A stretch of DNA of 64,000 nucleotides, from NCBI GenBank assembly GCA_963708075.1, contig OY970194.1, forward strand, positions 7,104,001 through 7,168,000, in the 5' to 3' direction. Below, one piece after another: positions 9,497 to 18,152 of this stretch. The DNA is from Sedimentisphaerales bacterium (lineage in GTDB: Bacteria; Planctomycetota; Phycisphaerae; Sedimentisphaerales; Anaerobacaceae). A program made the position numbers and the translations under genes. The notes below the pieces were generated by a model, which did no database searches, had not been told where the DNA came from, and was given only the letters and a program-made list of their open reading frames with translations. How positions within the stretch are numbered: position 1 is the stretch's first letter; every line of letters starts with the position of its first letter.

Positions 9497-9552
9497 TTCG
9501 CGTCGGCAGGTGACGAGGTTTGCCTTGCCGATTAACACATTGGGAGTTGAGC

Positions 9553-10875
9553 ATGCCACACGAATACAAAACGAATCGGCGGCAGTTTGTCAAATGGGCC
9601 TGCGGAGCCGGGGCGGCTGTGACGCTTCCCTGCTGGGTGCCCGCGTGCGCCCTGGGGCTTGGCGCAAGCACCGCGCCCAGCAATCGCATCCGTATGGCGG
9701 CGATTGGACTGGGCTTCGGCTGGCAGATGTTCCTGCGCGATGACGTGCAGTACGTGGCCGTCTGCGACGTGCAGCAGCAGCGGCGCGAGGCGGCGAAGGC
9801 GTATGTAGAGGCTAAACAGGGCAGTGGGACTTGCACCGCGTACAATGACTTCCGCGAGGTCCTGGCCCGTGACGACGTGGACGCAGTCTACATCGCCACG
9901 CCCGACCACTGGCATGCGCTGGTCACAATTGCTGCCGCCCGGGCCGGCAAGCACGTCTATTGCCAGAAGCCGCTCACCCGGACCATCGCGGAAGGCCGGG
10001 CGGTGGTCGATGCCGTTCATCGCCACGGGATCGTCTTCCAGCATGGCACGCAGCAACGGTACGATGCTCGTATGCTCTTCGGCTGCGAGTTGGTGCTCAA
10101 CGGGTACATCGGCCAACTCAAGCATGTGCGGATCGGCAGTCCGGCCGGGATAACTTGCCCGCCGCAACCGCCGCAGCCCGTCCCCGCCGGACTGGACTGG
10201 GAGATGTGGCTGGGGCCTGCTCCCTGGGCCCCGTTCACGCCGCTGCGGATTCAGTCGCATCCCTGGTATCACATCTCCGATTACAGCATGGGCTACATCG
10301 CCGGCTGGGGTGTGCACCATGCTGATAGCGCAATGCAGGGCTCCGGACTGGATGAGTATGCGGGGCCGGTCGAGATCGAGGCCCGCGGCATCTTCCCCCC
10401 CGAGGGCCTGTTCGACAATCCGTACCGCTGGCAGATGCACTATACCTTCCCCGGCGGCCTGAAGTGGCACTGGACGGATTGCTTCGGTGACGGTTTTGGC
10501 TCCCGGTCGGGCCCCGATTGGCCGCAACATCGCATGGGTATCACATTCGAAGGTACCGATGGCTGGGTGTTCATCTGGCGCGACAAGGTGGATGCCTATC
10601 CCAAGAAGCTTCTTCGCGTTCGGATCGGCCCCAACGACAAAGTCCGTCTACAGGAGAACCTGCCGGGTGACTTCGTCGATTGCGTCCGGCGAGGAAGGCG
10701 GACCTGTGCCCCGGTCGAAATCGCCCATCGCTCGACGACCCTCTGTTCCATTGGCGCCATCGGCATGTTGCTGGGTCGCAAGCTGACCTGGGACCCGAGC
10801 CGCGAAGAGTTCGTCGGTGACGAGCAGGCCAACCGCCTTCGCGCCCGGCACATGCGCGGGCCCTGGGAGGTTTGA
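9553..10875 (+). CDS. Tat-exported Gfo/Idh/MocA oxidoreductase
   Basis: NRRQFVK twin-arginine signal; IATPDHWH, YCQKP and DWEMWLGPAP motifs. Confidence 0.9.
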   Translation: MPHEYKTNRRQFVKWACGAGAAVTLPCWVPACALGLGASTAPSNRIRMAAIGLGFGWQMFLRDDVQYVAVCDVQQQRREAAKAYVEAKQGSGTCTAYNDFREVLARDDVDAVYIATPDHWHALVTIAAARAGKHVYCQKPLTRTIAEGRAVVDAVHRHGIVFQHGTQQRYDARMLFGCELVLNGYIGQLKHVRIGSPAGITCPPQPPQPVPAGLDWEMWLGPAPWAPFTPLRIQSHPWYHISDYSMGYIAGWGVHHADSAMQGSGLDEYAGPVEIEARGIFPPEGLFDNPYRWQMHYTFPGGLKWHWTDCFGDGFGSRSGPDWPQHRMGITFEGTDGWVFIWRDKVDAYPKKLLRVRIGPNDKVRLQENLPGDFVDCVRRGRRTCAPVEIAHRSTTLCSIGAIGMLLGRKLTWDPSREEFVGDEQANRLRARHMRGPWEV

Positions 10876-10965: not shown

Positions 10966-13254
10966 TCATGGCAGCAGAGGTGCTGTTCCGGTGCCGCCGA
11001 GGGTAAGCTCTGCAACCGGCTCGTCGGGATCATTGCTGCCGATGGCCAGCTTCGCATATTCATAGCTTTGGGATGCGGCAGGCGTAAGACGCACAAGGAT
11101 TGTTCTGCCGGTCAAAGGAGAAACGGTGAAGGGAAGCGCCGGCGGTGACACGAGGCTATAGCCGGTCTTGTTCAGACCCACCAACTCAAGCGAGTGCACT
11201 TGCAGATCGGCAGTGCCGGTATTGTGGATGTCAAAGGCAAGGTCAGCATGAGAGCCGACGGCTGTCGGAGCAAACGCCAGGGCATCCGGGGCCAACTCAA
11301 TGTCGGGCTCCTGGGCAACGAACATGGCGGCGGGCAGCTCGAGCACCTGCCATTCGATGTGACTCTGCTGGCCGGGGAACTGGCGCTCAATGCGGAGGTT
11401 GTCGTCAGCCGTGAATTCCGCTGTCGAGAACGGCCGCGGGTAGAGGTCTCCGGTCCCGTTGCAGGTCTGGCCGTGGAAGAACATGGCTCTGCCGGTATCG
11501 ACAGGCTGTGCCAGGCGGCAGTCCGCGGACATCCAGCCGGCATCGTCGGAGAAATCGAGGCGGCCGTGCTGGGCCAACGCGGACGGACCAAAATCGACCA
11601 CGTGATACTCAATGTATCGCGTCCCGGTGGTCCCCGTGTACTGATAGAATTGGACGGTGTCCTTTGAGGCCAGGCGTCCGGCAACCGCCGAATAGGCCAG
11701 GCCGTTGACCGTCGACCGAGTCTGGTAGAGGAGAATGGAGGAATTGGGATTGACCGGCAGAATCTTGGCCGAGGCGGGCGCTGTCGCGGAGGCGCCGGTG
11801 AAATGCACGTTACCATGCTGGACGCCGGCAATTGCCGCCGGATCGAACTCGACGACGACCCAATTGTAATTGACCACGGAGTGTCCCGCGGCGGCCCTTT
11901 CTATGTGCACGGTTGTGGCCGAATTGACATAGGCGGTCAGGAGGGCCTCGTGGTAGTAGGTTCGAGCGGTGGAAGACGTGTCGGCGGTCACGAAGGCGAT
12001 GCATCGCGAAGGATCCACTCTGACCTCGGAGGCGGCGGCAGCGAGGACACGCCCTCCCGTTTGTGCTTGCGAGCCGCTCAGGGCGGCATCGACGGAACTC
12101 TGCTCATTGCCGAGCGATCCGCTGCCCCGATAAATCTGGAATTCCCGGCCGAGACACTCAATGACCTCCCAACTGACCCAGGTGGAATTCGCGGGCGAGG
12201 TTCGTTCGATTCTTATGGTGTCGGTATCCAGCAGGCGACCCCTGGCCATGACGACATTGGCATTCTCCTCTCCCGGCTGCCAACCGGTGCCGTAGCTGAA
12301 CAAGGCGAAGGCCCGGCCAGTATCGTTGACAGGCAGGACATCCACGTCGAAACGCGAGCCCTGAACTCTCGTTCGGCCGGATTGTACGCGATAGCCGGTA
12401 TGGTAGCCGGTCGGGCCATTCGTGGAGAAATCCACCGTGCCGTCGGTCCACTGGCCGCCGGCGGAGTTCCGGGCATAGAGTCGATAATAGTACTTCGTGG
12501 CGGCGTCCAGGTCCGTGAGGTCCAGGTAGAGGACCCCGGCCGCCTGCGGTCCAAGCTCTGTGAGATAGTCCCATCTCCTTGGGTCCGTACCGCCGTCATT
12601 CTCGCCCCAGTAGATGTGGACATTAGGGTCCTCGCCCCCTGTGTCAAGGATCTCGCCGCGGAGCCGGGCGGAGTTGCCTGTGACATACATTGCCGGCTTG
12701 TTGGTGATTTGGGGCCGCACTGTGGGTGTGAACGTGTAGTCGAGCGTGACGTTCAGGAATCCGCCCTGTGATGGGTAGAATTGTGACCTTGGATTGCCGT
12801 CTTTCACGAAGACGAATGTCGCCCGGTTGAACTGATTCTTCGTAGCGTTGTGATTCGTCAATTCGAACCGTATGTAATATGTGCCATCCGGCACTTGGAC
12901 GCCGCTACGGTCAGTCAGGTCCCATGTGATGGTGTGCTGTTGGTATGCCTTTGGCGTGGCGCCGGTGAAGCCGTCGAGGTTCGTTCCGTCGGCAGCGTTC
13001 CACTGCGTCAGATGACGATGCTCGATGACTCCCCATCGTCCGATCGTTTTGACGAAAGCGCCGGCGGCATTCTCGACCCAGACGGCCTGCACGTGCTGTG
13101 GTTCGAAGTTGAGCTCGCCTTTGGGCGAGGTCGTAGTGAACGTCACCACCAGTTTCCAGCCCGCGTAGAGGGGGGCCGCGCCGAGGCTGTGCCAGCCGAG
13201 CCACAGGATCGCTGCCCAGGCGAAGATGCTCTTCAGGGAATCACGTCGTCTCAC
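10966..13254 (-). CDS. Secreted multidomain protein: DUF2271 (predicted flavinylated) + FN3-like + four tandem beta-repeats + C-terminal Ig-like (ASH/choice-of-anchor D) domain
   Basis: Signal peptide; DUF2271 pattern AVWVE..G.FVKT...W...DGFTGAT...WDLTD..G..VPDGTY; 'LDAATKYYYRLYARNSAG'; C-terminal 'IHNTGTADL...IGSNDPDEP'. The start overlaps the protease stop by 14 bp. Confidence 0.8.
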   Translation of the reverse strand: MRRRDSLKSIFAWAAILWLGWHSLGAAPLYAGWKLVVTFTTTSPKGELNFEPQHVQAVWVENAAGAFVKTIGRWGVIEHRHLTQWNAADGTNLDGFTGATPKAYQQHTITWDLTDRSGVQVPDGTYYIRFELTNHNATKNQFNRATFVFVKDGNPRSQFYPSQGGFLNVTLDYTFTPTVRPQITNKPAMYVTGNSARLRGEILDTGGEDPNVHIYWGENDGGTDPRRWDYLTELGPQAAGVLYLDLTDLDAATKYYYRLYARNSAGGQWTDGTVDFSTNGPTGYHTGYRVQSGRTRVQGSRFDVDVLPVNDTGRAFALFSYGTGWQPGEENANVVMARGRLLDTDTIRIERTSPANSTWVSWEVIECLGREFQIYRGSGSLGNEQSSVDAALSGSQAQTGGRVLAAAASEVRVDPSRCIAFVTADTSSTARTYYHEALLTAYVNSATTVHIERAAAGHSVVNYNWVVVEFDPAAIAGVQHGNVHFTGASATAPASAKILPVNPNSSILLYQTRSTVNGLAYSAVAGRLASKDTVQFYQYTGTTGTRYIEYHVVDFGPSALAQHGRLDFSDDAGWMSADCRLAQPVDTGRAMFFHGQTCNGTGDLYPRPFSTAEFTADDNLRIERQFPGQQSHIEWQVLELPAAMFVAQEPDIELAPDALAFAPTAVGSHADLAFDIHNTGTADLQVHSLELVGLNKTGYSLVSPPALPFTVSPLTGRTILVRLTPAASQSYEYAKLAIGSNDPDEPVAELTLGGTGTAPLLP

Positions 13255-13780
13255 GGTTCAACTCCAGTTGTCTGTCATAAGAGGAGAAATCCTGAGGTGT
13301 CGCGCCATCGGCGGCCCTGTGCATCAGTTGGTCAGCCATCGCGCACGCAGTCCGGGTCACCTGTCCGAGAACAGCGCCAACTGCGGGCGAAAGCTGCATG
13401 CCATAGTCGATGACGGCCGGCTCGACGCCGAGTATCAGTACCCGTGGTCTCGATTTCGTAGGCAGCAACCGCAGGGCTGCTGCGATCCCCAGTTCGTGCA
13501 GCGAGACATGCTTAGGGACTTCGGCGTCGTTGACGTCGAAGCAATAGATCGACCCGGGCGAGCCGCCGGCAGCTACCGCGTCGATGGCCACGACCACGTC
13601 GACACTCTCGAACAACTCCAGCGCGTCGAGCAGGGCGGTGCCGACCTCCGCGAGGACGATGCCTTCGGGAGCCTGCCCGCTCAGCATCCGGATCGCGTGT
13701 ACGCCGACGCCGTCATCCATGAGCAGGACGTTCCCCAATCCCACGATTGCCGCACGAGCACGTTCCTGCCGCCGAACCAT
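13241..13780 (-). CDS. Hydrogenase maturation endopeptidase (HyaD/HybD family)
   Basis: GLGNVLLMDDGVG, IDAV, SLHE and GVEP motifs; start overlaps the large-subunit stop. Confidence 0.92.
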   Translation of the reverse strand: MVRRQERARAAIVGLGNVLLMDDGVGVHAIRMLSGQAPEGIVLAEVGTALLDALELFESVDVVVAIDAVAAGGSPGSIYCFDVNDAEVPKHVSLHELGIAAALRLLPTKSRPRVLILGVEPAVIDYGMQLSPAVGAVLGQVTRTACAMADQLMHRAADGATPQDFSSYDRQLELNRETT

Positions 13781-15219
13781 CACAAGCCACCCAGTTTCAG
13801 TACGTTGCTCTTGTGCTTCGGCTTCACCACGTGTGCCGCACAATCCAGGCACGGATCGAACGAGTGAATCACTCTCATCACCTCGATAGGCTGGTCGACA
13901 TTCTGCACCGGCGTGCCGAGTAGAGCCTCTTCCAGCGGGCCAAGGATACCCCTGTTGTCACGCGGGGATGCATTCCACGTCGTGGGACTGATCACCTGAT
14001 AATGCGAAATCCTGCCGTCGGAGATTCCGAGCCAGTGTCCCAGCGCCCTTCGCGGCGCTTCCGTCAAACCCATGCTCGCAGCCGCGTCCGGCACCGTCGG
14101 CGGCTGATAGACAGGACCTTCCGGAATGAGTTCGTCGAGCCACTCGCGTGCGGCCATCGCGATTTTCATCGCCTCTCTCGCCCGAGCCAGATGGCGGTCC
14201 ATGACCGAGATCCCGTTGCGATAGTCGCCATTGATCCACATGCGAGCGAGAGGTCCCACCTCATACGGCCTGCCCTCATAGCGCGGGGCCTTAAGCCAGG
14301 AATAAGCGTACGTCTTGGACGCCGGATCGACTGCCTTCGTTTGACCTGAAGCGGGATGGAGGCCGTCGGTGTTGTTTTTGAACCATGAATGCGTCACGTG
14401 CTCCGCAATGGAAGCGGCGTCAAGCGGCAGGGGAGTTGCAGAGCCCTCCACAACGTGGCCGCCGGCGAGCAGTTGATCGCCCCCGGCGTCATCCAGTTCA
14501 AATACGCCATACGCCAGGAGATTCCCATACCCGCGTCCCAAGCCGAGGTAGTCGCTGTATTGCGAGGCGAGCTGCTCGGCGTCCGGTATATACCGGTCCT
14601 GGATAAAGCCAATCAGCTCATTCAGGTAGGCCCTGTAATTCGCGATGCGCTCCGGCCGGGGATTGGCTGTGAACCCGCCGGCGATATAGGCCGGAGGATG
14701 GGGCAGGCGGCCGCCGAACAGGGCCCCCATCTCGTGACCTTTGCGCCGCATCTCAAGGGCCTTGAGATAGCCGGCCATGAGAGTGTCGGAAGCCTTCTGA
14801 TCGAAGCGTCTGTCCACGTTCCACTCCGCCTGCCAGGGAGGCATGGCGGGTCCCGCGATGAAGTCGGGCAGCGCCAGAAGGTAGAAATGCAGGATGTGGG
14901 ACTCGATGAAATTGGCGGCATTCACCAGGTTGCGCATGATCCGCGCATTCGCCGGCACGGCGACGCCGCAGGCCGCGTCGAGGGCTTTGACCGCCGCCAT
15001 GCCGTGCGCCACGGGACAAACACCGCAAATCCGCTGGGTGATATGCTGCGCATCTCTCGGGTCGCGGCCGACGAGAATATTCTCGATACCGCGGAACATG
15101 ACGCCGCCGGCCTGGACGTTGACCACCTGCTGAATGCCGTTGACGGTATCAAACTCGACCTCGACCAGCAGGTGACCCTCCACGCGGGTCACCGGGTCAA
15201 AAGAGGCTGTCACTTTCAT
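13780..15219 (-). CDS. [NiFe]-hydrogenase large subunit (group 1, resembling 1a/Hys-type but with Cys rather than Sec)
   Basis: DPVTRVEGH; L1 motif QRICGVCPVAH; L2 motif DPCLDCAAH followed by a 16-aa cleavable tail. Confidence 0.95.
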   Translation of the reverse strand: MKVTASFDPVTRVEGHLLVEVEFDTVNGIQQVVNVQAGGVMFRGIENILVGRDPRDAQHITQRICGVCPVAHGMAAVKALDAACGVAVPANARIMRNLVNAANFIESHILHFYLLALPDFIAGPAMPPWQAEWNVDRRFDQKASDTLMAGYLKALEMRRKGHEMGALFGGRLPHPPAYIAGGFTANPRPERIANYRAYLNELIGFIQDRYIPDAEQLASQYSDYLGLGRGYGNLLAYGVFELDDAGGDQLLAGGHVVEGSATPLPLDAASIAEHVTHSWFKNNTDGLHPASGQTKAVDPASKTYAYSWLKAPRYEGRPYEVGPLARMWINGDYRNGISVMDRHLARAREAMKIAMAAREWLDELIPEGPVYQPPTVPDAAASMGLTEAPRRALGHWLGISDGRISHYQVISPTTWNASPRDNRGILGPLEEALLGTPVQNVDQPIEVMRVIHSFDPCLDCAAHVVKPKHKSNVLKLGGL

Positions 15220-15232
15220 CGTTGCCGGATCC

Positions 15233-16123
15233 TTAAGTGTAGAAGTTTCCGCCGGGGAAGTCGGGTTCGGTACATCCCAGGCATACGCTGTTGGCGTCCA
15301 CACACCAGTTCACGCCGTTGTTCCATCTGCGCTTCCAGCAGTCGCTGAAGGCTGTTTTGCCGCGACAGCCGAGATCGAGCACGCAGCAGTTGTCCTGTCC
15401 GAAACTTGTTGCCATAGTGCTGTTCAGGCGTGGGCAGTTGTCGTGCAGCTTGGCGCCATAGAGGGCGACGGGACGGTCATATGCGTCCAGCTCGATCTTG
15501 TTGCCCAGAATCAGTTGCACGACCGCCCAGGTAATCCAGTCCGGGTGGGCCGGGCACCCCGGGATGTTGATGACGCTCTTTCCTGTGGCCTCTTTGACGC
15601 TGATGATATCCGTCGGATTCGAGCCGGAACGGGGAATGCCTCCGAATGAGGCGCAGGTACCGACGCACAGGATCGCCGCGGCATCCGCGGCCAGATCGAG
15701 AACGGCCTGCTGATACGTGACTCGCTGGCCGTCATAGGTCCACACTTGGCAGGCGCGTCCACCGAACGCCCTGGCGACGCCGCCCTCGAGTGCAAGGACA
15801 TATCCGCCACGCGCCTGGGCCTCGTTGAGCATCGTGACCGCCGTCTCGCCGGCGGAGGACATCACGACGGTGTGATAGGCGAGATTGATCGAGTGGACCA
15901 GAATATCGTCTGCCGTGGTTTGGCCGGCGTCCGCGGCCGCGTCGATGCGGTTCAGAAAGGAGATCGAGTCCCCCTGACATCCGCTGCCATGCAGCCACAG
16001 GACGGTGGGAGCCGCCTTGCCCGTCAGTGCGGCCTCCAGGCGTCCGAGTAGCAGGGGGGTAAGGTTGATCGCTCCGGCACAAGCGGCACAGTGTCTAAGA
16101 AAGGTTCGGCGAGTGAGATGCAT
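15233..16123 (-). CDS. [NiFe]-hydrogenase small subunit, Tat-exported, without a C-terminal membrane helix
   Basis: LTRRTFLR Tat motif; GCQGD, GTCASFGG, IPGCP, HDNCPR, CVLDLGC and SDC...WCVDANSVCLGC; ends at ...DFPGGNFYT. Confidence 0.95.
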   Translation of the reverse strand: MHLTRRTFLRHCAACAGAINLTPLLLGRLEAALTGKAAPTVLWLHGSGCQGDSISFLNRIDAAADAGQTTADDILVHSINLAYHTVVMSSAGETAVTMLNEAQARGGYVLALEGGVARAFGGRACQVWTYDGQRVTYQQAVLDLAADAAAILCVGTCASFGGIPRSGSNPTDIISVKEATGKSVINIPGCPAHPDWITWAVVQLILGNKIELDAYDRPVALYGAKLHDNCPRLNSTMATSFGQDNCCVLDLGCRGKTAFSDCWKRRWNNGVNWCVDANSVCLGCTEPDFPGGNFYT

Positions 16124-16186
16124 CACCTGGCTCCAACTCCACTGGGTGGAATGAAAACATATCAGCCCGGACACTACATGACTATT

Positions 16187-16215
16187 CTTATACCAAATCG
16201 ACCCCGGAGTGTCAA
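16187..16215 (-). promoter_or_regulatory. Putative sigma70 promoter of the hydrogenase operon
   Basis: Minus strand reads TTGACA-17 nt-TATAAG with an extended TGn, about 60 nt upstream of the small-subunit start. Confidence 0.65.
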
Positions 16216-16618: not shown

Positions 16619-18152
16619 ATGATGGGTATGATCAGAACCTTCCTTCGGGGCGCCGCATTCGTTGGTATTTGTGCACTTTGCTGGAGTGCGTCGGTTCAGG
16701 CTCAGCCGGCGGCGAGCGAGACGCAGGTAGTTCCTGCGCCCGGGCAAGTGCCGCCATTGCCGCCACGACTGCCCGATGGAATCCCGGCATTCCCGGGGGC
16801 CTGGGGCGGCGGCATGTTTACCACCGGCGGCCGCGGCGGCAGGGTGATCGAGGTGACTAATCTGAACGACGGTGGTCCGGGCAGCCTGCGGGCGGCCACC
16901 CAGGAACAGGGTCCTCGTATCGTTGTTTTCCGCGTCGCCGGCATCATCCAACTGCAGTCGAACATCGACATTGACAATCCCAATATCACTATCGCGGGTC
17001 AGTCCGCGCCGGGCGACGGCATTTGTCTGGCTAACCAGTCACTGAACATCAACACGCGCAACGTCATCCTTCGTCATCTGCGCGTGCGGCGCGGCCGGCC
17101 CGAGGGAGGCCAGGGATCGGACAACATCGGTGGCAATCCCCAGGAGCAGATCATCGTCGACCATTGCAGCACCAGTTGGGGCATGGATGAGAACCTCTCG
17201 CTCTATCGCTATATGAAACCGCTGCCCGGCGGAGGTACCGTGAAACTGCCGGTCCAAAACCTGACCGTCCAGTGGTGCATTTCGAGCGAGGCGCTCAACG
17301 CCGGCAATCACGCTTTCGGCGGCACCTGGGGCGGGCGGGACTCCACGTTCCACCACAATCTCTTCGCCTGCAACACGGGACGCAATCCCTCCATCGGCAT
17401 GTCCGGCGAGTTCGACTACCGCAACAACGTGATCTTCAACTGGCGTCACCGCACCATGGACGGCGGCGATGAGAACCTCGCTGTTGAACGTGATCAACAA
17501 CTACTATAAGCCAGGTCCGGCAGTGAACGAGAACATGCGGAGCACGATCGCCCGGATCGAGGAACGCAACATGTATTCTCCCGGCCGGCAGTGGGAAGCC
17601 GGCAACTGGTACCCCAAGACGGCCGGTCGCGCCGGCAAGTGGTACGTCGCGGGCAACATCGTCGAGGGGTTCCCCGATGTCACCGCCGACAACTGGAAAG
17701 GTATGCAGGGTCCTGAGGAGATCGCCCGCGTCAACACTCCGTTCGAGGGCTGGCCGGTCAAGCAGGAAACCGCGACGGAGGCCTTCAACTCTGTGCTGAC
17801 CAGGGCCGGTGCGACTCTTCCCCGCCGCGACGCCGTCGATGTGCGCGTCACCGAAATGGTTCGTACCGGCAGGGTGACGGTCGGAAACGGTATCGTGAAC
17901 GATCCGAGAGAAGTGGGGGGCTATCCCGATTACTCCTTCTCGCCGGATGATGTACCGATCGATACCGACCACGACGGCATGCCCGACGAGTGGGAGAAGA
18001 AACACGAGCTGAATCCCGCCGACGCGTCGGACAGCAGCATCGACTCAGACCAGGACGGCTACACCAATGTTGAAGAGTATCTCAACAGGACCAATCCACA
18101 TGAGAAGATCGACTACAGGAACCTGGGAAACAACGTTGATACGATGAGTTGA
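16619..18152 (+). pseudogene. PL1-family pectate/RG-II lyase with a single-base frameshift (real mutation or sequencing error)
   Basis: PAFPGAWGGG..TTGGRGG, IAGQSAPGDG and IIVDHCSTSWGMDE in one frame; NNYYKPGP, DTDHDGMPDEWE and DGYTNVEEYLN in the next. An extra A at 17474-17475 separates them. Confidence 0.85.

Follow-up and report, generated by a model that had tools for sequence, protein, structure and literature searches.

A DUF2271 protein with a predicted flavinylation site accompanies a clade of exported [NiFe]-hydrogenases in Sedimentisphaerales

Where do the electrons of an exported hydrogenase go when no cytochrome is encoded with it? The question is raised by a four-gene operon of a Sedimentisphaerales bacterium (GCA_963708075.1), located in a 64,000-nucleotide (nt) stretch of contig OY970194.1 (G000:C1:7104001-7168000), here called the window; operon positions are counted within it. 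The operon encodes the two subunits of a [NiFe]-hydrogenase, a maturation protease, and a secreted protein that starts with a DUF2271 domain. The electron acceptors known for group 1 hydrogenases are b- or c-type cytochromes, ferredoxin-like subunits, and quinones. An earlier note on this DNA proposed instead that the DUF2271 protein carries a covalent flavin mononucleotide (FMN) that serves the enzyme as electron partner. We find the two genes side by side throughout almost an entire hydrogenase clade, and we favor, at a probability of roughly 55%, a system in which H2 is oxidized outside the cytoplasm and the distal cluster hands electrons to FMN on DUF2271, a dedicated extracytoplasmic partner. 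Four minus-strand open reading frames (ORFs) run from 16126 down to 10966, and the features on which the argument turns are as follows (aa, amino acids; Tat, twin-arginine translocation; FN3, fibronectin type III; Ig, immunoglobulin-like).

15233..16126, minus strand: [NiFe]-hydrogenase small subunit, 297 aa counted from ATG, with a Tat signal and no membrane tail (TIGR00391)
13780..15219, minus strand: [NiFe]-hydrogenase large subunit, 479 aa, with a 16-residue C-terminal extension (PF00374)
13241..13774, minus strand: hydrogenase maturation protease, start uncertain (TIGR00072)
10966..13254, minus strand: secreted partner, 762 aa, with a Sec-type signal, the order DUF2271-FN3-four beta repeats-Ig, and no membrane anchor
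12721..13179, minus strand: DUF2271 domain (PF10029), aa 26-178, the only partner domain common to all linked loci
12955..12966, minus strand: TGAT, aa 97-100, predicted ApbE flavinylation site, from motif conservation

NCBIfam and Pfam uphold the identities that the earlier note gave to the Tat small subunit, large subunit, protease, and secreted protein, and the ORF coordinates agree with its tight packing: gaps of 13 nt and 5 nt separate the first three genes, and the protease and partner genes overlap by 14 nt. Family scans and hydropathy also bear out that the operon lacks cytochrome b, HybA/B, and any CxxCH motif, and that C-terminal membrane helices are missing (the best 19-residue stretch at the C terminus has a hydropathy of 0.35 in the small subunit and 0.28 in the partner). 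The "one promoter" placed ahead of the genes was not recovered; a sigma-70 scan gave no minus-strand site, and terminator matches are at chance level. Because that strand shows no promoter-like site, the argument for co-transcription is one of gene spacing.

The linkage itself is conserved among relatives. The gene that follows the hydrogenase encodes DUF2271 in 19 of 20 clade loci but in none of 77 sister loci, some of which have short flanks; the 20 clade loci with downstream DNA come from 16 GTDB genomes and 4 metagenome contigs. A large-subunit tree of 105 rows, made by a quick method with support from the Shimodaira-Hasegawa-like approximate likelihood ratio test (SH-aLRT) and no bootstrap, recovers a 16-row clade (SH-aLRT 100) that holds 15 DUF2271-linked rows and a nested exception (genome G156; G and L numbers are our handles for genomes and loci). 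On this tree the DUF2271 label requires 2 changes, versus 14.2 in shuffles. With L255-L257, which were found after the tree was made and placed by both clade motifs, and the partial loci L099 and L150, the clade reaches 20 loci that have downstream DNA. L102, which has the same partner sequence as G255/L150, is left out of the 20-locus count, and the duplicates L228, L232, L221, and L222 and the fragment L202 are left out of the tree.

Among 80 loci matched with the large subunit, only the best match, L017, had a downstream DUF2271 gene; further loci came from the bacterium's own family (276 genomes), a second family (70 genomes), and metagenomes. The domain profile matches 11 of the 275 other genomes of the own family (10 hydrogenase-linked, 1 an ApbE-DUF2271 fusion) and 6 of the 70 in the second (4 hydrogenase-linked, 2 YhcH fusions). 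Nine partner loci were found in metagenomes, with an intact hydrogenase upstream in five, remnants in three, and too little sequence in one. Within a sample of 401 class genomes the clade appears only in the bacterium's own order; one small-subunit homologue is labeled Sumerlaeota. A wider library contains 2481 matches, many of them proteins with surface-type tails, and the motif is present in 124 of 174 examined. By its sequence distribution, then, DUF2271 is a general module, one subtype of which is tied to the clade hydrogenase. The link outlasts loss of the protease gene (7 of 20 loci) and replacement of the tail, which takes the forms FN3-repeat-Ig, FN3-Ig, Ig-LVIVD, LVIVD-LamG, and dockerin-like in partners of 565 to 1664 aa. 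Away from hydrogenases, two secreted DUF2271-YhcH/DUF386 fusions carry HARTGAT (L258:9365-10429 and L259:6723-7808).

The predicted FMN site is the most constant part of the partner. As the earlier note read from the letters, the fourth gene begins with DUF2271 (PF10029 hidden Markov model, 37 bits against a cut-off of 27.3; some linked homologues fall just below, at 23-28 bits), and DGFTGAT lies at 12955-12975, aa 94-100. The window partner is the sole DUF2271 match in its genome. All 19 linked domains have TGAT, and among 14 linked homologues of 31-92% identity no other run of at least three residues is invariant; [ST]GA[ST] arises in 2.7% of shuffles of the domain. We take the last Thr of TGAT to be the FMN carrier. 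For another DUF2271 protein, Meheust et al. (2021, PMC8238504) showed flavinylation at this motif by the cognate ApbE, and its loss on a Thr-to-Ala change. Flavinylation of the TGAT Thr by ApbE is thus a highly probable prediction here.

The same transferase is encoded in all 13 clade genomes checked, and the earlier note's query whether the window's genome has apbE is answered affirmatively, though the main copy adjoins rnf. G676 has three apbE genes. One shares the strand of the operon, starts the neighborhood 64 nt upstream of the small-subunit gene, and is 35% identical to the rnf-associated copy of the window's genome. This extra gene, judged from its placement, is more telling than the genome-wide presence of apbE. 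Two further loci of the window's genome touch on flavins. One (L014, G000:C1:4784634-4792979), a candidate membrane conduit, has an apbE without a signal sequence downstream of genes for a 7-heme cytochrome c, a cytochrome b561 (PF01292), a permease-like protein, and a PMT-family glycosyltransferase. The other (L242, G000:C1:4364991-4365218) encodes a large membrane protein with an FMN_bind domain (VTGAT), a NapH-like C terminus, and an N-terminal region that is presumably spermidine-synthase-like.

What occupies the partner's place in the sister lineages? Of the 77 sister loci, 61 lack any linked heme. In 9 the small subunit itself bears heme, and in 7 (L028, L034, L039, L053, L065, L069, L231) the gene alongside encodes a mono- or multiheme protein. 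Hemes are fused to 9 of 70 sister small subunits versus 0 of 18 in the clade. This exchange of heme and flavin in one slot agrees with the flavin/cytochrome interchange reported among other extracytosolic enzymes (PMC8238504). The fused CxxCH motifs number 1 to 4 (L029, L030, L032, L045, L054, L080, L081, L227, L229), and in L227, moreover, a dockerin-like stretch is inserted internally, and a secreted Ig/FN3-type gene separates the small- and large-subunit genes. The idea that absence of a cytochrome is special to this operon was rejected: it is family-wide, and only 16 of 77 sister loci have a linked heme. No cytochrome b, as in the membrane-bound groups 1b, 1c, and 1d, occurs among the scanned neighbors of the operon and its relatives.

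Many sister enzymes carry tails of their own. C-terminal extensions of at least 45 aa are found in 18 of 70 sister Tat small subunits (Desulfobacterota, Chloroflexota, Planctomycetota), among them L026, L028, L031, L035, L036, L038, L040-L043, L048, L050, L058, L072, L074, L076, and L231. They are labeled Ig/ASH domains, dockerin-like repeats, and secretion-type tails, part of these labels being our assumption, and no cytochrome b was seen beside these extended subunits. They may represent a wider family of envelope- or surface-tethered hydrogenases. In L078 and L079 the large subunit precedes the small one, and in L079 the next gene encodes a methyl-accepting chemotaxis protein (MCP) chemoreceptor.

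Several observations weigh against a flavin partner. On the side of linkage, weaker domain matches in 15 of 400 other genomes of a phylum sample include no hydrogenase-linked one and are mostly ApbE fusions or neighbors; the same DUF2271 subtype occurs away from hydrogenases, in the YhcH fusions of G743 and G682; and three loci (L098, L100, L101) keep the partner beside remnants of the protease or small-subunit gene. Since all linked genomes fall in one order, the link may have a single origin. These points would suit an accident of adjacency, one event inherited by the clade with the functions of the two proteins unrelated: a single origin inside one order, a partner that outlives the hydrogenase in 3 loci, and an enzyme without the partner in 1. 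Yet flanking genes vary between loci while the pair stays, and the pair is kept despite protease loss and across two families, where identity is 60% for the large subunit and 31% for the domain; we regard such an accident as very improbable. In L098, L100, and L101 the DUF2271 gene lacks the last Ig domain and the hydrogenase is apparently decaying.

Other points concern redox function. The window's own cluster has no apbE, and only 1 of 20 loci has one adjacent to the operon; given the rnf neighborhood of the window genome's copy, we rejected the presence of apbE in the genome as independent support. In the sister loci, 61 of 77 are without linked heme, and non-redox secreted genes occupy the slot in several (L021, L023, L051, L057, L227, L229), so that the family can apparently work without an adjacent redox partner. 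In G156, an intact clade enzyme (CQGDS, DPCLDC) is followed by a CHRD, CBM96-like, and dockerin-like protein; no flavin or heme motif was found in that protein, and no DUF2271 match in that 80%-complete genome. Finally, 27 ORFs with at least three CxxCH motifs are present in the window's genome. The earlier note's "heme-free" and "instead of a cytochrome" accordingly hold for the operon, which has no cytochrome gene, and not for the cell.

Such findings could also mean that the partner, co-regulated with the hydrogenase, serves chiefly as a scaffold in the envelope or on the surface, or is a flavoprotein wired separately, and that the true acceptor is a c-type cytochrome encoded elsewhere; cytochrome c3 is the electron acceptor of Desulfovibrio HysAB. 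The 27 multiheme ORFs, the 61 sister loci without linked heme, the non-redox genes in the slot (G156 and the six sister loci above), and the Ig or dockerin-like tails of 18 of 70 sister small subunits are all in keeping with a scaffold. It is opposed by the retention of the flavinylation domain and TGAT while structural domains swap, by the dedicated extra apbE beside the G676 operon, and by the heme count in small subunits (0 of 18 in the clade versus 9 of 70 in sisters). We consider a scaffold unlikely, though a serious alternative. The flavin-partner proposal of the earlier note thus emerges strengthened by conserved linkage, an invariant TGAT, apbE, and sister hemes in the same slot, and weakened by the family-wide absence of cytochromes, the genome's multihemes, and apbE beside rnf. 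None of the earlier note's refuting outcomes that could be checked was observed.

Is the hydrogenase itself of a known kind? Its diagnostic motifs are listed here.

16097..16114, minus strand: twin-arginine motif TRRTFL, from sequence; aligns with the signal of 2wpn_A, and tatC is in the genome
15968..15979, minus strand: proximal-cluster motif CQGD, with Asp for the second Cys of CxxC; clade signature, from alignment
15016..15033, minus strand: L1 motif RICGVC, from sequence
13840..13857, minus strand: L2 motif DPCLDC, whose Asp459 aligns with Gly491 of the D. vulgaris NiFeSe enzyme; clade signature, from alignment

The nearest solved structures and curated families of both subunits (PDB, NCBIfam) are NiFeSe/group 1a, and NiFeSe hydrogenases are group 1a in HydDB (PMC5037454). 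The small subunit passes TIGR00391 (185.8 bits against a cut-off of 179.5), whereas the curated NiFeSe cut-offs are missed (NF033181, 559.8 < 600; NF045518, 503.7 < 780; NF045520, 245.9 < 470). The large subunit is nearest to NiFeSe HysA yet has Cys rather than selenocysteine: L2 reads a TGC Cys codon at 13849-13851 in an open frame. Both group 1 patterns, L1 RxCGxC and L2 DPCxxC, are present; RICGVC and DPCLDC are invariant (14/14), and DPCLDC is found in 20 of 20 clade loci versus 0 of 75 others. The Gly491 equivalence comes from a match of query residues 1-30 to 2wpn_B 466-495, and the Gly is visible in a separate large-subunit alignment.

The iron-sulfur ligands of the small subunit align with those of 2wpn_A and 4kl8_S except for one Cys replaced by Asp: it reads HGSGCQGDS where NiFeSe enzymes have GCTGCS, and so lacks the four-Cys CxxC proximal site. 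At the medial cluster, Cys stands in place of Pro (WCV, aligned to NiFeSe small subunits), as in the [4Fe4S] of HydDB group 1a. The predicted ligands are therefore three Cys and one Asp (proximal), four Cys for a [4Fe4S] (medial), and three Cys and one His (distal). CQGDS marks at least 106 clusters of small subunits (90% identity), namely 106 among the top 120 homologue clusters, and 100 of these also have a Tat motif. The proximal Asp was rejected as unique to the clade, as four non-clade loci (L055, L070, L080, L092) also have CxxD; in L044, L056, and L062, Asp is at the first proximal ligand (DxxC) and not the second. Elsewhere, G491A and G491S are described as lessening O2 damage via a blocked hydrophilic channel (PMC7324405, PMC7497094), and the proximal Asp of a group 1h enzyme as required for O2 insensitivity (PMC11023054). 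In its aligned sequences, the clade is doubly substituted, with Asp at the proximal cluster and Asp at the G491 O2-channel position, a pair of changes absent from the earlier note.

One residue of the window's large subunit stands apart: Arg replaces an otherwise invariant Gly (TEAPRRAL, nt 14049) just after the active-site Arg. All 13 aligned relatives have Gly at this position, as does a near-identical contig; the DNA contigs checked were short, and none covers the whole operon. We rejected the change as a lineage trait, and since the near-identical contig reads Gly, it is probably an assembly error or a strain allele. For maturation, hypF, hypD, hypE-like, and hypB-like genes, which the earlier note suggested looking for elsewhere in the genome, were located there along with tatC. 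The genome also encodes a paralogous hydrogenase (L012, G000:C1:1948403-1950776; large subunit 53%), likewise found in G270, G259, and G233, that keeps canonical CxxC, ends its small subunit in a Gly/Arg-rich tail, and has no gene for a redox partner.

The protease gene and the large-subunit extension are jointly absent in 7 of 20 clade loci. The large subunit stops at the final His, with no adjacent protease gene, in L103, L104, L150-L153, and L133, and also in L033, L050, and L067. Read from these gene sequences, proteolytic maturation has been lost repeatedly in Tat-exported enzymes that lack the extension and the protease gene.

Beyond DUF2271, the earlier note's FN3/repeat/Ig architecture of the partner is supported by NF012200, an AlphaFold model, and structure search, which place three further features.

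12412..12723, minus strand: fibronectin type III domain, from AlphaFold model and structure search
11335..12396, minus strand: four divergent beta-rich repeats of ~85 aa, found in one subclade only, from sequence and AlphaFold model
10984..11328, minus strand: ASH/choice-of-anchor-D Ig-like domain, from NF012200, AlphaFold model, and structure search

The model has a mean predicted local distance difference test (pLDDT) score of 86.5, with low pLDDT in the TGAT loop. FN3 corresponds to model residues 153-256 (Z about 10-11) and the ASH Ig domain to 625-732 (Z 13.5; root mean square deviation, 2.3 A; 104 aligned). Whole-chain Foldseek searches gave matches at a TM of about 0.1 only. The best structural matches of the DUF2271 model (C2-like, FlgD, PorU C-terminal; Z of at most 7.7) are uninformative, and its profile gave weak FlgD matches only against PDB sequences. 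In the Atlas, the four-repeat region matched unnamed, mostly phage clusters (0.91-0.93, low recognition). No PepSY-like membrane protein or DUF4198, as in PepSY-like flavinylation clusters, was found among the scanned window neighbors. A convergent gene for a Tat-exported Gfo/Idh/MocA oxidoreductase (window 9520-10875) ends 91 nt from the partner gene and is not kept beside the operon in relatives. On the other side, a pectate-lyase-like gene (window 16619-18152) is apparently split into overlapping ORFs, 16619-17509 and 17469-18152, a possible frameshift.

How would the flavin partner work? Both proteins have export signals and no membrane anchors, and tat, hyp, and apbE genes are in the genome. 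ApbE would very likely place FMN on the TGAT threonine, as in another DUF2271 protein, and because the linkage is strict, hydrogenase and partner very likely act jointly. Somewhat less surely, the FMN domain would probably dock by the distal cluster and take the electrons of H2 oxidation, much as cytochrome c3 does in Desulfovibrio. From there electrons could pass to a periplasmic or surface carrier, be it a multiheme cytochrome or an FMN/NapH-like conduit in the membrane; alternatively they could go to an acceptor outside, for instance Fe(III). The FN3/Ig/repeat/LVIVD/LamG tail might hold the flavin domain within the envelope or at the cell surface, and the two Asp substitutions might tune the relay or harden the enzyme against O2.

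The same wiring could run in reverse, with the flavin gathering electrons from reduced minerals, Fe(0), humics, or partner cells and H2 being evolved outside the cell, as with MicH. Proton reduction on iron by a Tat-secreted extracellular [NiFe] hydrogenase has been described (PMC7848899), NiFeSe-type enzymes are bidirectional (PMC11023054), H2 production is reported for SG8-4 planctomycetes (PMC13502194), and the partner has adhesin-like domains. Against this direction, the archaeal large subunits compared, MicH itself not among them, are only 33-35% identical, and export across the outer membrane is an assumption. Covalent FMN has potentials of about -0.2 to -0.3 V, which favor electron acceptance from H2. 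We judge the reverse direction quite unlikely. Turning back to H2 oxidation with a flavin partner, a bolder form of it, which we hold tentatively and consider doubtful, would make the clade an unrecognized exported subgroup: a doubly Asp-substituted enzyme at the cell surface with a tethered covalent-flavin relay, a heme-free link from H2 to extracellular partners, and one branch, the flavin one, of a wider family of surface-tagged hydrogenases that spans phyla (Ig, dockerin-like, and heme tails).

We found no published DUF2271-hydrogenase pair in the full-text literature, a scope outside which lie most subscription papers and the gene-cluster supplement of PMC8238504. Literature on flavinylation with NiFe hydrogenase, on Sedimentisphaerales/SG8-4 hydrogenases, and on a proximal Asp likewise yielded no description of such a system, and "hydrogenase" is absent at word starts in the main text of two flavinylation surveys, one of them PMC8238504. 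NiFeSe-annotated hydrogenases are reported in 30% of digester planctomycete genomes (PMC11929135). Neither the components nor the principle of substitution is new, but the literature searched describes neither the combination nor the doubly substituted clade. If the flavin partner is real, a covalent flavin outside the cytoplasm would be a new electron exit route for group 1 hydrogenases, a first tie between ApbE flavinylation and H2 metabolism, and a concrete function for one DUF2271 subfamily. It would also point to extracellular electron transfer driven by H2 in sediment planctomycetes, abundant organisms that are as a rule regarded as plain fermenters. At two sites that experiments elsewhere tie to O2 resistance (proximal Asp; G491), the enzyme is a natural variant. 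Being soluble, selenocysteine-free, and sometimes protease-independent, it is therefore a ready candidate for structural and electrochemical work.

Among known systems, the periplasmic [NiFeSe] enzyme HysAB (Desulfovibrio vulgaris/Desulfomicrobium baculatum; PDB 5JSU, 2WPN, 1CC1) gives the best PDB and NCBIfam matches for both subunits. It shares the short large subunit, the Tat small subunit without a membrane tail, the medial Cys (WCV), and an operon without cytochrome b. Unlike HysAB, the clade enzyme has Cys and not selenocysteine, Asp for the second proximal Cys, Asp at Gly491, scores below the curated cut-offs, and an attached DUF2271 gene.

A proximal [4Fe4S] with three Cys and one Asp is likewise known from the actinobacterial-type group 1h enzyme of Cupriavidus necator (PDB 5AA5; PMC11023054). 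5AA5 is distant and among the weakest matches (small subunit, 95 versus 194 bits for NiFeSe; large subunit, 125 versus 405), so that the clade shows no sequence affinity to HofKG/HhySL; a PDB search with a short segment did not recover 5AA5. We take the CxxD position here to be that of the proximal Asp of 5AA5. Group 1h hydrogenases are without Tat export, and given this and the sequence distance, the likeness appears convergent. MicH of Methanococcus maripaludis OS7, likened here by its description, is also Tat-exported, without a membrane cytochrome, and of proposed extracellular role; it is archaeal and encoded with its own tat genes, and we found no flavin partner in that account (PMC7848899).

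On the partner's side, the protein resembles ApbE-flavinylated DUF2271 proteins (PMC8238504) in its PF10029 score above the cut-off, [S/T]GA[S/T], secretion, and apbE in the genome, once adjacent. Those described there sit mostly in iron-linked PepSY-like/DUF4198/apbE clusters; the clade domain, unlike them, heads a multidomain protein of 565-1664 aa next to a hydrogenase, and its operon encodes no membrane conduit. The flavin-for-cytochrome systems in the same source use FMN_bind domains, and no hydrogenase case was found in its text. Like the fumarate/urocanate reductase and alcohol oxidase systems among them (PMC8238504), the clade has a predicted covalent FMN domain where relatives use c-type hemes.

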